Virus record (IMG/VR): IMGVR_UViG_3300020401_001763
Span: 4,952-68,951 of that record
Reading direction: 5' to 3' (one strand)
From: a virus
Length of the DNA stretch: 64,000 nucleotides
Position numbers and translations under genes: made by a program
Notes under the pieces: generated by a model
Seen by the model: only the letters and a program-made list of their open reading frames with translations
Database searches by the model: none
Told to the model about the DNA's origin: nothing
Part shown: in pieces, positions 4,429 to 26,191 of the stretch
Layout of the letters: each line of letters begins with the position of its first letter
Position numbering within the stretch: the stretch's first letter is position 1

Positions 4429-5015
4429 TGGGTATCGTAAAAAGAGCGGCAGATATAGCATACACTTTCAGGTTCATACGAATGCTCGTTTTGGACTGGA
4501 AAGATTGGGACGCTTATAAGCAAGGTATCATAGACGAGAATGGAAAGAGAATAAAAACAGTGAAATTGGATAGCGATGAAAAAAAGTCTTCTTATACTCC
4601 TTTTATTCGCTTGTGCGCTAACATCAAGAGGCTCCTTTCAAAAATTCCAGGGGGAGGAAGTAAACTCGGATCTTTTGCGGCCGCGCTCTTTCTCATTAAA
4701 GAAAAATACGGATTCACGGACAAGAACTTAAAAGACATCTGTGAAAAAGTAAACGTCGACGTACTTGATTTTCTAAATGAAAGTAACGAATGGTTTATGT
4801 TAGAAAATAAACAAATATCTCCTGGGATATATAAAGTTCATAATCCTAAACTACTTAATACTACTTGTGATGAACTGGTTTGGCCTAAAGACCAAATTAG
4901 AATAGAAGAAGAATGTTTTCCTATTGGTGATGTATTTGGCGTAGATATTTACGAAGCTATACATATGAAAACACAACAAAGAATTTATATTGCTTTGAGC
5001 GAGATATACAAATGA
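4428..5015 (+). CDS. conserved T4-like hypothetical protein
   Basis: YTFRFIRMLV..W..WDAYKQGIIDENGK motif. Confidence 0.7.
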   Translation: MGIVKRAADIAYTFRFIRMLVLDWKDWDAYKQGIIDENGKRIKTVKLDSDEKKSSYTPFIRLCANIKRLLSKIPGGGSKLGSFAAALFLIKEKYGFTDKNLKDICEKVNVDVLDFLNESNEWFMLENKQISPGIYKVHNPKLLNTTCDELVWPKDQIRIEEECFPIGDVFGVDIYEAIHMKTQQRIYIALSEIYK

Positions 5016-23482: not shown

Positions 23483-23533
23483 TCACTTTGAGGTGATTTT
23501 TTTGTTTACATTCTTGTTTTTTTATGGTATAAT
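23483..23533 (+). promoter_or_regulatory. early promoter with upstream TCAC-N6-GTGA box
   Basis: TCAC 23483-86, GTGA 23493-96, TTTACA 23505-10, 17 nt spacer, TGnTATAAT ending 23533. Confidence 0.75.
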
Positions 23534-23971: not shown

Positions 23972-24176
23972 AGGAGCAACAGAATACGGTTACAGAGGAC
24001 TGGCCGAGATAGAACTCTTAAAAAAACAAATAGCTGAGGATACTAAAGAAAAGTACACGCTATACAAGCGTATCAAAGAGTTAACTGAATTACTGGAAGA
24101 GCATAAAAAGATAAATCAAGCTTTGAAAGCTGAATTACCACAAAATGTAATTGAAAAAATAATTCAAAAAAAGTGA
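23961..24176 (+). CDS. small coiled-coil protein
   Basis: GGAGG SD; ATG 23961. Confidence 0.55.
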   Translation: MLAEGATEYGYRGLAEIELLKKQIAEDTKEKYTLYKRIKELTELLEEHKKINQALKAELPQNVIEKIIQKK

Positions 24177-24214
24177 AAAAAGTCCTTTACATTTGCTTAA
24201 AAGTATGGTATAAT
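24173..24214 (+). promoter_or_regulatory. early promoter (near-duplicate of 25688-25729)
   Basis: GTGAAAAAAGTCC, TTTACA 24186-91, 17 nt spacer, TGnTATAAT ending 24214. Confidence 0.75.
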
Positions 24215-24289
24215 ATATCTATAAAATGGAAAAAGAAATGAAAACAAAAGTGGAGAAAATCAATGACATAGCGAAGGTAACCGGCAGGA

Positions 24290-24440
24290 TGTGTGATGGA
24301 CAACGAGATGACGAGAAGCACATCGGGATTTACAGGTACGGAACTACCCAGGGAATCAGCGGCGGAGTATAAAACGTTCCCCTCCTTACTATGGGGCCGA
24401 TAGGTCGGTAAGGAGGATGGTATTGACAACGGCCCCAAAG
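24290..24440 (+). ncRNA. candidate structured RNA with pseudoknot
   Basis: GC-rich stretch; CCTCCTTAC 24381-89 pairs with GTAAGGAGG 24408-16; loop TGGGGCCG 24392-99 pairs with CGGCCCCA 24430-37. Confidence 0.5.
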
Positions 24441-24469
24441 AATTTATAAGCGAAACTGAGGAGTACATT

Positions 24470-24673
24470 ATGAAAATTTTAAAAGCAATCAAAGATATTA
24501 AATTTGACAATGGAGTTTCCGAGCCCATTGTCATGGCTTCTGCAGCTGGTTGGTACGTAGGTGCAATCGATAATAGTGAAGGCTTTATTCAGCCTTACGA
24601 TAGATACACCGGCTACTATGCCACTTCTGGCGAAGCCGAAACAGTTTTGGACGGGCATTTTAGCAATGCCTAG
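24470..24673 (+). CDS. small hypothetical protein
   Basis: GAGGAG SD; SAAGWYVG and PYDR.TGYY motifs. Confidence 0.65.
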   Translation: MKILKAIKDIKFDNGVSEPIVMASAAGWYVGAIDNSEGFIQPYDRYTGYYATSGEAETVLDGHFSNA

Positions 24674-24881
24674 TCCATCCGAACTACAAGCAATGACGCC
24701 GCTATTTCTTCAACTCCTCTTCTTCGCGGTAGCTGGCGCATTGCTCGTAGGCACTTTCGTATCGATCGTCGGTTTGATGTATCGATACGCTCTTTTTATA
24801 GTATTAGTGCTGTTAGTATTCGTCAGCATTAACTATGGAATTATTGATATAAATAAGTTAATACAGGGAGTTGGCGTATGA
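24666..24881 (+). CDS. small membrane protein
   Basis: ATG 24666; two hydrophobic helices. Confidence 0.55.
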   Translation: MPSPSELQAMTPLFLQLLFFAVAGALLVGTFVSIVGLMYRYALFIVLVLLVFVSINYGIIDINKLIQGVGV

Positions 24882-25033
24882 TTAGGTGGTTTGATTATAT
24901 GATCATAGCACCGTTCGCTTACGTGCTATCAAAATCATTTATTATTGGAGCTTATGACTTTACTATTATTTCATATTTGCTCTATGTGGTCTATTGTGTG
25001 AAAAGAAAATCATGGGAAGGTAAAAAAGTATGA
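24878..25033 (+). CDS. small membrane protein (51 aa); not in ORF track
   Basis: GGAG SD; ATGA overlaps on both sides; MIRWFDYMIIAPF... Confidence 0.5.
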   Translation: MIRWFDYMIIAPFAYVLSKSFIIGAYDFTIISYLLYVVYCVKRKSWEGKKV

Positions 25034-25389
25034 CTATGCATCTAATGCCAGTTTATTATAATAATAATAACAGCAAAAAACGTAAACCTTTTCGAAAGCC
25101 AGGGTGGCAAAAAGCTCAGGCCGAACATGACGCTTGGCTAAAAAAGCGTGGTGTTCATCCTAGTCAACTTAAAAACAAAGAGAAGTCTAGTGGCAACCGT
25201 ATTCCGGACTATTCATCAGATCGTAAGAGCGTCCCGACGTCGAACTATGTCGGTCCAATCGAAGGCCGTAAAGCAGCAAAAGTCTACAGTGGTGACTACA
25301 TCGTCGGCATCGCAACCATGCACAAATCAAACGCAGTCCCTGTTGGAAGAGGCGATGACGTCAAGTCGTACGCTAAAATGAGAAGGTAA
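25030..25389 (+). CDS. conserved T4-like hypothetical protein
   Basis: YSG..IVGIATMHKSNAVPV motif. Confidence 0.7.
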   Translation: MTMHLMPVYYNNNNSKKRKPFRKPGWQKAQAEHDAWLKKRGVHPSQLKNKEKSSGNRIPDYSSDRKSVPTSNYVGPIEGRKAAKVYSGDYIVGIATMHKSNAVPVGRGDDVKSYAKMRR

Positions 25390-25395
25390 CAATTT

Positions 25396-25471
<76 letters not shown>

Positions 25472-25487
25472 ATTATGGAGAAGAGGA

Positions 25488-25691
25488 ATGGAACTATTTT
25501 TAGTAGCTACACTTTGGATGATAGCTAATAAAGAGTTTGTCGTAACCGCAAGCAAACAAGTTGACGATGGTTACAAGTGGCATAAGGTAGAATGCAGAAA
25601 ACCAGACGAAAATATACCCCATGTTAAAATAAAATCCCCAAACGGAAGAGAATATATTTGCTTAAAGCTAAAAAAAATCACCTTGAAGTGA
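25488..25691 (+). CDS. small hypothetical protein
   Basis: ATG 25488 downstream of the tRNA. Confidence 0.5.
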   Translation: MELFLVATLWMIANKEFVVTASKQVDDGYKWHKVECRKPDENIPHVKIKSPNGREYICLKLKKITLK

Positions 25692-25729
25692 AAAAAGTCC
25701 TTTACATTTGCTCAAAAGTATGATAGAAT
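25678..25729 (+). promoter_or_regulatory. early promoter with upstream TCAC-N6-GTGA box
   Basis: TCAC 25678-81, GTGA 25688-91, TTTACA 25701-06, 17 nt spacer, TGnTAGAAT ending 25729. Confidence 0.75.
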
Positions 25730-25760: not shown

Positions 25761-25952
25761 ATGGATATGAATATGTTAGTAGATATGTTAGCTAGGATGA
25801 CAGCTGTAGAAAAAGTACAGTTTGTCGAAAAGCTTTGTGATACGCATCCTAATTTAGCTTTTGAAATCAGTAACTCAATTGAGGTTACTATGATGGATAA
25901 AGTCTTTTTGGAAAACGAAAAGAAAGTACAGGCTGCGAGGCAAGTAGTATGA
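25761..25952 (+). CDS. small hypothetical protein
   Basis: GAGGAG SD; follows the promoter. Confidence 0.6.
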   Translation: MDMNMLVDMLARMTAVEKVQFVEKLCDTHPNLAFEISNSIEVTMMDKVFLENEKKVQAARQVV

Positions 25953-26191
25953 AAAATCCTATAGCAAAATATCTAATGTGTTCTTATGCTTACTATGAGC
26001 AAGGTGATCCACTTATAACGGATCAAGAGTTTGACGAGTTAGCTAAGTACATATTAGCTAATTATGATAATATAGAACATATGCACAAGCATCTTGTGAC
26101 TATAGGTGATTTGGAAGCTGGTACTTACTTAGGTAAATATCCAGCAATGGTTAAAGGCGCAGTTGGAAGTTATAGAAGGGGAGAAAGATAA
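25949..26191 (+). CDS. stand-alone NAD-dependent DNA ligase subdomain Ia-like protein
   Basis: YAYYEQGDPLITDQEFDEL resembles the LigA YY..D.P.ISD.EYD.L motif. Confidence 0.6.
   Translation: MKNPIAKYLMCSYAYYEQGDPLITDQEFDELAKYILANYDNIEHMHKHLVTIGDLEAGTYLGKYPAMVKGAVGSYRRGER

Follow-up and report, generated by a model that had tools for sequence, protein, structure and literature searches.

A candidate ribosome-engaging leader RNA of large marine phages joins a conserved two-codon mini-ORF to a double-pseudoknot fold

Introduction

The leaders of phage early transcripts are the first contact of a virus with the transcription, translation, and RNA-decay machines of its host, and to our knowledge very few phage leader RNAs (put, nut, the gene 32 operator) are understood. 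The present study concerns a further such RNA, encoded at 24252–24437 of a 64,000-nucleotide (nt) stretch of viral DNA (the window) that spans positions 4,952 to 68,951 of IMG/VR record IMGVR_UViG_3300020401_001763. The element combines a Shine–Dalgarno (SD) sequence and a two-codon mini open reading frame (mini-ORF) with a compact fold that contains two pseudoknots, and comparison with its relatives indicates that it belongs to an apparently undescribed family of single-copy RNAs of large, AT-rich marine phages.

Several described systems resemble parts of this element. Flavivirus exonuclease-resistant RNAs (xrRNAs) are built on a three-way junction in which the apical loop of one arm pairs just 3′ of the closing helix, after which a hairpin follows. 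The element shares this topology, but it is twice the size, has no likeness in sequence and no Rfam xrRNA match, and offers no supported counterpart of the pairing between the 5′ strand and the junction that makes the xrRNA ring (the candidate, GUAA/UUAC, is treated below). In the repY–repZ leader of IncIα and IncB plasmids, translation and termination of a leader ORF are coupled to an RNA pseudoknot that governs the downstream gene. There, too, a short leader ORF is linked with a pseudoknot upstream of a gene; however, the repY leader peptide has ~29 codons and ends at the regulated ribosome-binding site, whereas the ORF described here has 2 codons and its stop lies on the 5′ side of the fold. 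The leader shunt of cauliflower mosaic virus (CaMV) 35S RNA, a case of eukaryotic scanning, involves a very short ORF that stops a few nucleotides before a compact structure, with the expressed ORF just past it. The arrangement at our locus is similar, with a gene just beyond the structure, but the downstream genes of the phage family have their own SD sequences and in two members their own promoter.

Among phage RNAs, put consists of two simple hairpins over ~70 nt and is not known to contain pseudoknots or a mini-ORF. The HK022 putL and putR sites are cis-encoded, promoter-proximal folded RNAs that head phage early operons once or twice per genome, and our element likewise lies just downstream of an early promoter; its three-way junction, two pseudoknots, and mini-ORF set it apart from put by description. 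The T4 gene 32 translational operator, named as a pseudoknot in PMC10690425, resembles the 3′ domain of our RNA, as both are H-type pseudoknots that precede the ribosome-binding site of a phage gene by a few tens of nucleotides; that operator, however, is tied to one autoregulated gene, whereas our RNA precedes varying genes and has both a further domain and a mini-ORF. By analogy, the nearest tested precedent appears to be the minigene in the leader of the LEE1 operon of enterohemorrhagic Escherichia coli (EHEC). According to the parts of PMC3262186 drawn on here, this translated AUG-AAA-UAG minigene in a leader of ~170 nt is needed for optimal expression of the next gene, and both its translation and its placement matter. 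The likeness lies in an AUG, one sense codon, and a UAG within a leader; those parts of PMC3262186 describe no conserved pseudoknotted fold, and the mini-ORF considered here, known from sequence, sits at the 5′ end and is separated from the next start codon by ~200 nt.

Results

A family of single-copy RNAs in marine phages

The IMG/VR record that holds the window is linear, 68,951 bp long, and an estimated 41% complete. It carries baseplate, ribonucleotide reductase, and DUF4815 genes, and the best cultured relative of the phage reaches 35% protein identity at most. The guanine plus cytosine (G+C) content is ~50% across 24250–24450, against 36% window-wide. A first-pass annotation, made from the letters of this DNA, had proposed a pseudoknotted RNA at this site and judged two such stems unlikely to arise by chance; all of the helices that it named are found, letter for letter, where it placed them. 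A stem of at least 9 pairs together with a loop–tail pairing of at least 8 arises in 14 of 3,000 dinucleotide shuffles of the segment, which is a modest signal for the window alone, and the minimum free energy (MFE) of 24215–24470, computed for nested structures with no pseudoknot modeling, is uninformative, being no better than that of shuffles (z = 0.11). The decisive evidence is comparative.

Two DNA patterns drawn from the conserved single-stranded blocks retrieved 54 stretches (2 of them chance matches) and 99 stretches in viral contigs, with a further 6 pattern stretches in prokaryote assemblies, of which 4 are true and 2 chance. A third pattern, which left UUUACA free, returned 34 stretches, all of them already known and all with UUUACA. 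The resulting family comprises ~100 marine viral contigs with ~70 distinct versions, and its loci have a median G+C content of 34%; these are the marine-virome homologs by which the first-pass annotation had proposed to check the RNA. A covariance model of the 5′ domain (R1) matches 77 of 79 sources, once each, with E values of 1e-8 or better, the two misses being the chance matches, and gives a single match of 127.7 bits in the window, where the next best scores are 18.4 and 16.9 bits. Each of the five large records searched likewise has a single copy; one of these records is a complete genome of 328,292 bp with terminal repeats.

The claim of novelty was borne out by the Rfam scan. At the gathering score, Rfam 15 finds only a tRNA (25396–25468) in the whole 64 kb, and the families that fall short of that score include pRNA, xrRNA, HDV-like ribozymes, glmS, RNase P, tmRNA, and the riboswitches. 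With E values up to 10 on 24100–24560, three matches of 10.8–18.8 bits appear, against gathering scores of 43–80, and none of them lies meaningfully on the fold. A blastn comparison of a 2-kb stretch with 50,697 phage records gave the tRNA match only, and three family members gave no match besides a 32-nt hit (E 0.2) to a Caulobacter phage, which we take as chance; thus, no cultured host was found. No described equivalent emerged from the literature searched. An IMG/VR screen (PMC10690425) lists 8,495 candidates with a mean length of 67 nt, among which the family or pieces of it may sit; it is not mentioned in the main-text passages of that report drawn on here.

The RNA is also carried by contigs binned into metagenome-assembled genomes (MAGs), namely L138, from a Balneola MAG, whose R1 score equals that of the window, and L136, L139, and L140. 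A host assignment from the MAG labels (Flavobacteriales, Balneola, Marinovum, and an archaeon) was considered and rejected, as these loci have G+C contents of 36–41% and the family range is 30–44%; the contigs are taken as phage DNA binned by mistake rather than as evidence of a host.

Two stacked domains, each with a pseudoknot

The fold consists of a 5′ domain with six helices and a 3′ domain formed by hairpin He and pseudoknot PKf (Table 1). In the 5′ domain, helix Ha closes a three-way junction of Hb and P; P carries hairpin Hc, the loop of which pairs just 3′ of Ha to form pseudoknot PKd. He begins at the nucleotide right after PKd, and the 3′ domain is directly stacked on the 5′ domain.

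Table 1. Positions of the promoter, mini-ORF, helices, and first downstream gene in the window
Feature	Positions	Strand	Pairing or description	Basis
Sigma-70-type promoter	24186–24214	+	TTTACA / 17 nt / TGgTATAAT	11/12 matches, with TG
SD of mini-ORF	24252–24255	+	GGAG, 7 nt ahead of AUG	Read in sequence
Mini-ORF	24263–24271	+	AUG ACA UAG, two codons	Kept in family
Helix Ha, 5′ strand	24281–24285	+	CCGGC, with 24361–24365; closes three-way junction	
Helix Hb, 5′ strand	24288–24294	+	GAUGUGU, with 24318–24324	
Helix Hb, 3′ strand	24318–24324	+	GCACAUC, with 24288–24294	
Helix P, 5′ strand	24327–24331	+	GAUUU, with 24353–24357	
Hairpin Hc	24335–24348	+	GGUA/UACC (24335–38/24345–48), loop C-GGAAC	Model-alignment helix 5
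Pseudoknot PKd, 5′ strand	24340–24344	+	GGAAC, Hc loop, with 24376–24380	
Helix P, 3′ strand	24353–24357	+	GAAUC	Model-alignment helix 4
Helix Ha, 3′ strand	24361–24365	+	GGCGG	Model-alignment helix 1
Pseudoknot PKd, 3′ strand	24376–24380	+	GUUCC, adjoins He	Model-alignment helix 6
Hairpin He (stem 1 of the first-pass annotation)	24381–24416	+	24381–24390 with 24407–24416	Anchored finder, 63/65 versions
Pseudoknot PKf, 5′ strand	24392–24399	+	UGGGGCCG (TGGGGCCG as DNA), in He loop, with 24430–24437	
Pseudoknot PKf, 3′ strand	24430–24437	+	CGGCCCCA, 3′ end of fold, with 24392–24399	
SD of downstream gene	24458–24463	+	GAGGAG	Read in sequence
First downstream gene	24470–24673	+	67 aa, no known family	ORF list, profile searches

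The 5′ domain is supported by two alignments. When 68 distinct 5′ domains are aligned by MAFFT without regard to structure, 88.3% of cells pair, compared with 68.0 ± 0.8% in shuffles (none of 500 reaches the observed value) and 22–45% when partners are slid. In a model-based alignment of 69 distinct rows and 26 pairs, 95.0% of cells pair, compared with 73.7% in shuffles and 21–46% in slid controls, although this alignment is biased toward Ha, Hb, and Hc, which are in the model; P and PKd are absent from the model and pair in 100% and 99.1% of cells. Moreover, 18 of the 26 pairs vary on both sides and the covariation score is 0.564 against 0.195 in shuffles; among 500 shuffles, none matches the percentage paired or the covariation score and 3 match the count of pairs that vary on both sides. 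The frequent G–U pairs identify the + strand as the RNA strand.

Taken singly, the helices differ in how freely they vary. Ha is paired in 98.2% of cells, and all 5 of its pairs vary on both sides (CCGAC/GUCGG, CCACC/GGUGG, AAGGU/ACCUU, and others); the window version has one G–G mismatch. Hb, which corresponds to helices 2 and 3 of the model alignment, is paired in 81% and 92% of cells, with 7 of 7 pairs varying on both sides and a distal arm of variable length across the family. Helix P, with the consensus GRUUU/GAAYC, was discovered by a mutual-information scan: its pair 24328/24356 is G–C in 38 and A–U in 31 of 69 sequences, with no mismatches, and its remaining four pairs are invariant. 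For Hc, 97.8% of cells pair and 2 of 4 pairs vary on both sides, and in PKd 3 of 5 pairs do so (GGUAG/CUACC, GGUUG/CAACC, GGUAC/GUAUC, and others). Many of the unpaired nucleotides are invariant across the family.

Four of the five helices named by the first-pass annotation are thus kept by compensatory changes. The fifth, GGGAA/UUCCC (24351–55/24377–81), pairs in 80.6% of cells, shows no covariation, and has one pair that is unpaired in 43 of 69 sequences, and its 3′ letters covary with the Hc loop instead; it was rejected in favor of PKd (GGAAC/GUUCC) and helix P. A GUAA/UUAC pairing of the 5′ flank with the junction, of the kind found in xrRNAs, was also considered; it pairs in 96% of cells, but its sole varying position is mismatched in 11 of 69 sequences and it is left unsupported.

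For the 3′ domain, in which MAFFT alignment is inconsistent between classes, we used a finder that is anchored and structure-seeking and therefore set it against shuffles. Of 65 distinct versions, 63 have a stem of at least 8 pairs with a loop–tail pairing of at least 5, compared with 990 of 6,500 shuffles (15%), and a stricter requirement of 9 and 7 pairs holds for 51 of the 65, compared with 116 of 6,500. L041 and L113 retain the hairpin only. In the window, the strands of He are CCTCCTTAC (24381–24389) and GTAAGGAGG (24408–24416), which form 9 perfect pairs with a tenth, T–G, possible; elsewhere they read CGCUUUUAC/GUAAAAGCG, CUAGCCUUACC/GGUAAGGUUAG, or CGGUACAGA/UCUGUACUG. In total, He has 33 distinct stem sequences, with several pair types at every position past the first, and PKf has 26 distinct sequences, such as GAGGGGC/GCCCCUC, GGGGCGG/CCGCCCC, and UGAUC/GAUCA. 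Hence, the covariation that the first-pass annotation had asked for in stem 1 and in its loop–tail pairing is present. As the loop pairs 3′ of its own hairpin and both helices are kept in relatives, the 3′ domain is an H-type pseudoknot.

A conserved mini-ORF at the 5′ edge of the fold

An accessible, A-rich 5′ end bearing the SD sequence precedes the mini-ORF, which a spacer of 9 nt separates from the fold in the window. All 61 distinct 5′ flanks contain the mini-ORF. In 57, a script detected an SD-like run, 4 letters or longer, at the spacing expected; in the other 4, which have a TAA stop and for which the script had anchored on a later ATG, AAGGAG (three flanks) or AAGGA (L097) is seen by eye 8–9 nt before the ATG. 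The sequence is ATG ACA TAG in 52 distinct versions, ATG TTG TAG and ATG TTA TAG in one version each, ATG GAT TAC GGA TAG in two, ATG AAA GAA CCA TAG in one, and ATG (C/A)GG CGA TAA in four. Start, frame, and stop are retained in all six variants, which have 2, 3, or 4 sense codons counting the AUG; the changes in length are multiples of three, and the SD sequence shifts together with the AUG. In the 57 versions of the TAG class, the stop lies 9–10 nt ahead of Ha. TAG is thus the stop codon in 57 of 61 mini-ORFs, although among the long + strand ORFs of the window it is the least used (8 of 63). The arrangement is that of a leader minigene, in which an SD-preceded AUG, one to three sense codons, and a stop lie within an mRNA leader. 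The first-pass annotation had suggested a ribosome decoy as one role; the idea survives in altered form, as the ribosome-binding part would be this conserved SD sequence and mini-ORF, which that annotation missed. That the mini-ORF itself pairs with the conserved GAUGU downstream of stem 1 was rejected by eye, as the variants L088, L123, and L131 change without compensation.

The promoter reported by the first-pass annotation was likewise upheld, both by its 11 of 12 matches and by the family comparison: 50 of 61 distinct versions have a promoter-like site no more than 100 nt upstream of the mini-ORF, compared with 127 of 1,220 control windows. From the end of the −10 box to the AUG of the mini-ORF there are 25–34 nt in short leaders and 46–51 nt in the class of the window, apart from one script value of 7 nt. 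With the AUG 25–51 nt past the −10 box, the ribosome-binding site would lie at the 5′ end of the transcript. Two further promoter-like sites of similar make (TTTACA-17-TGnTA(T/G)AAT) are present in the window at 23505–23533 and 25701–25729, and of the three promoter-headed units only one holds the RNA according to R1.

Variable genes downstream of a constant module

The next start codon follows the end of the fold by 13–32 nt in 53 of 58 versions scored by script (range 5–114, with some short values being artefacts in which a TTG was chosen ahead of the real ATG), usually with a strong SD sequence that lies 9–25 nt past the fold. The genes themselves vary. Relatives of the 67-aa gene that follows the RNA in the window occur at 31 viral loci, only 5 of which have the RNA (4 near-identical loci and the diverged L007, which shows compensatory changes in every helix); the remaining 26 have the promoter immediately upstream of the gene, and the 67-aa gene therefore does not need the RNA. 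In one relative without the RNA, L008, a perfect hairpin, AGCCCAGAGATG ... CATCTCTGG, lies ~120–150 nt before the 67-aa gene, between an upstream coiled-coil gene and the promoter. A small membrane protein (MPSPSE..., 24669–24881 in the window), with a basic protein (25030–25389 in the window) after it, is encoded at about half of 82 loci; in a second group the first gene encodes an MSEE... protein, and further loci differ again, giving at least three downstream gene sets, all of unknown function. No constantly adjacent partner gene was found among the loci compared. L116 and L140 have another strong promoter, placed after the RNA and ahead of the next gene. Together, the differing downstream genes and the second promoters argue that the conserved unit is the module itself, that is, promoter, SD sequence, mini-ORF, and fold. 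On the + strand of the window, no terminator-like site follows the fold between 24470 and 25700; hairpins follow the RNA in L098, L116, and L140.

The DNA occurs in marine metagenomes of several studies. Contigs that cover the element or close relatives occur in 4 of 4 RNA libraries examined, from three studies, which is a weak hint of expression. One adapter-flanked insert of 142 nt spans 24238–24379 (run X17) and another ends at 24376 (run X15).

An ORF that overlies the RNA

The first-pass annotation had also listed a 48-codon ORF (24226–24372) that stops 8 nt ahead of stem 1; it is not conserved in the family. In 21 distinct members (L038-type and L089-type loci), an ORF of 80–85 codons runs from the promoter-proximal first AUG across the whole RNA and ends on a TAG that overlaps the start codon of the next gene, with lengths of 243, 249, 252, or 258 nt. 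This ORF bears no coding signature: variable columns at codon positions 1, 2, and 3 number 36, 37, and 42 in one set and 21, 25, and 30 in the other, and synonymous-only columns number 7 and 8, compared with 51 and 38 columns with an amino-acid change, so that a conserved frame with a synonymous excess is not seen. It has no SD sequence, the region has no Pfam or PHROG match, an ORF covers at least 80% of the core in just 28 of 65 versions, and the start codon is missing in most classes. We read the overlay as a by-product of conservation at the RNA level, with weak selection for read-through translation possible in one subclade.

Discussion

The comparison establishes a family of RNAs with a common fold, in which the SD sequence, start, frame, and stop of a mini-ORF are conserved and which is found in single copy in a promoter-proximal position. 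New here are the 5′-edge SD sequence and mini-ORF, the covarying pair of helix P, the single copy (including in the 328-kb genome), the members with a second promoter, the TAG bias, and the ORF overlay. Our preferred reading, to which we give a probability of roughly 0.4, is that the element is a self-contained, ribosome-engaging early-leader module that acts in cis on its own transcript. A ribosome would load on the 5′-terminal SD sequence and AUG of the mini-ORF, advance by one codon, and reach the stop with its leading edge against the closing helix Ha. Textbook ribosome footprints would place the end of the mRNA entry channel close to the start of Ha when ACA occupies the P site and UAG the A site. 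Together with the compact fold, the ribosome, whether docked or terminating, would then act in cis on the early transcript that carries both, either by shielding its 5′ end or by setting the use of the message that follows. We infer the translation of the mini-ORF, the contact of the ribosome with the fold, and any influence on stability or downstream expression.

Several observations weigh against a ribosome-engaging module. One copy per genome fits a generic stabilizer poorly, and the two members with a separate promoter for the next gene, L116 and L140, speak against control of that gene's translation as a universal role. In the TAA class the stop lies just 5 nt from Ha, so the geometry of ribosome and fold is not uniform. 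The mini-ORF letters AUGACAUAG are far more conserved (52 of 61) than translation alone needs and may also serve structure, and a long ORF overlies the whole RNA in 21 members, the window version being cut to 48 codons. The invariant unpaired nucleotides suggest a specific partner, be it a ligand, a protein, or RNA polymerase, that the favored explanation does not name. As to the data themselves, the search patterns fixed part of helices P and Hc, the covarying positions being free or specified only as purine or pyrimidine, and contigs from RNA libraries cannot show transcription, ends, or strand; contig depths and uncovered parts are uninformative.

Four other readings are, in our view, each unlikely. 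The RNA could instead be a stable RNA that acts in trans, as a decoy or anti-defense RNA, a ribonucleoprotein component, or a pRNA-like assembly RNA, in which case a ribosome on the mini-ORF would merely protect or localize it. Strong promoters lie on either side of the RNA in L116 and L140, which makes the next gene independent of it; there is one copy per genome; and the adapter-ended library inserts are a weak hint of short stable fragments. However, contigs cannot show RNA ends, no terminator follows the fold, a gene starts shortly after it in most versions, and no partner gene is constantly adjacent, which leaves this reading with an outside chance.

Rather improbable is a put-like processive antiterminator, in which the nascent fold would bind its own RNA polymerase and promote read-through of pause and stop signals in a long early operon. 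The parts of PMC9378689 drawn on here describe HK022 put as a nascent RNA that acts in cis to suppress both pausing and termination in the early genes of the phage, and the promoter-proximal position in 50 of 61 versions, the single copy, the independence from the identity of the next gene, and the hairpins after the RNA in L098, L116, and L140 would all agree with such a function, as would invariant unpaired nucleotides suited to a protein surface. The SD sequence and mini-ORF are left unexplained by it, however, and the + strand of the window has no terminator-like site in the 24470–25700 interval.

Low odds likewise attach to a sensor, either a riboswitch or a protein operator, whose junction and pseudoknot would bind a metabolite or an early phage or host protein and set the expression of the operon. 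A junction locked by a loop–tail pseudoknot and lined with many invariant nucleotides is the usual anatomy of an aptamer, the domain is conserved with covariation, and it is single-copy. Against this, a conserved expression platform is absent: the window has no terminator and the spacers inspected contain no conserved partner that would sequester the downstream SD sequence. Furthermore, the varied downstream genes belong to no single pathway and suggest no ligand, and no Rfam riboswitch matches.

A bolder form of the preferred reading, which we regard as a long shot, is that the element is a ribosome-docking RNA of a kind undescribed in bacteria and phages. A terminating 70S ribosome, dependent on release factor 1 (RF1) at the UAG, would be parked against a mechanically resistant, xrRNA-like double-pseudoknot fold, and the ribosome–RNA complex would be the functional unit. 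Two versions are possible. In one, the ribosome would be handed across the compact fold to a start site beyond it, a prokaryotic counterpart of viral ribosome shunting; in the other, ribosome and fold would form a long-lived 5′ cap that renders one early transcript immune to the 5′-end-dependent decay of the host.

The two remaining explanations can be set aside with some assurance. That stem 1 is an anti-SD/SD helix that decoys ribosomes or switches the downstream ribosome-binding site, as the first-pass annotation held, is contradicted as a family feature by the presence of CCTCC/GGAGG in only 4 of 33 stem variants (the helix is kept, the letters are not); the 16S-like and SD-like make-up is incidental to the lineage of the window, where the MFE fold pairs CCUCCUU (24381–87) with the real SD region of the next gene rather than with 24410–16 and a lineage-specific alternative pairing is possible. 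That the region encodes a small protein, as the long ORFs of the 21 members and their TAG at the next start codon might suggest, is no less improbable given the absence of a coding signature and compensatory changes in six helices that are of the RNA type.

The interest of the family lies in its complexity, with six covarying helices and two pseudoknots, in its spread through marine viromes, in its single copy in phages of up to 328 kb, and in the mini-gene fused to the fold. If the ribosome does belong to the mechanism, as in our preferred reading, the element would represent a new mode of cooperation between RNA structure and translation, and it could provide a compact part for stabilizing or timing synthetic transcripts. 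Even as a put-like or sensor RNA, it would be a new and well-defined family, ready for entry into Rfam and for structural study.

Neighboring features

Some further features were noted around the RNA in the window and at other loci. A tRNA-Arg(TCT) gene at 25396–25471 closes the promoter-to-promoter unit of the window that holds the RNA, and at L107 a tRNA-like sequence, identified by eye, lies after the first small gene that follows the RNA. Downstream of the RNA, L070 (− strand, ~110–330 nt past TTTACA) and L114 (+ strand, same place) have a conserved, G+C-rich stretch of ~200 nt that lacks ORFs and contains a long-range complementarity, CACAGAGAGG ... CCTCTCTGTG; this stretch may be a second structured RNA. 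L095 has an extra non-coding insert of ~100 nt between the RNA and the next gene, ~20–130 nt past the fold. Finally, an 80-aa protein encoded at 25949–26191 of the window comprises only the N-terminal, NAD+-binding Ia domain of NAD-dependent DNA ligase (Pfam PF22745, E 6.7e-7), and such a protein recurs downstream of the RNA at 34 of 82 loci.

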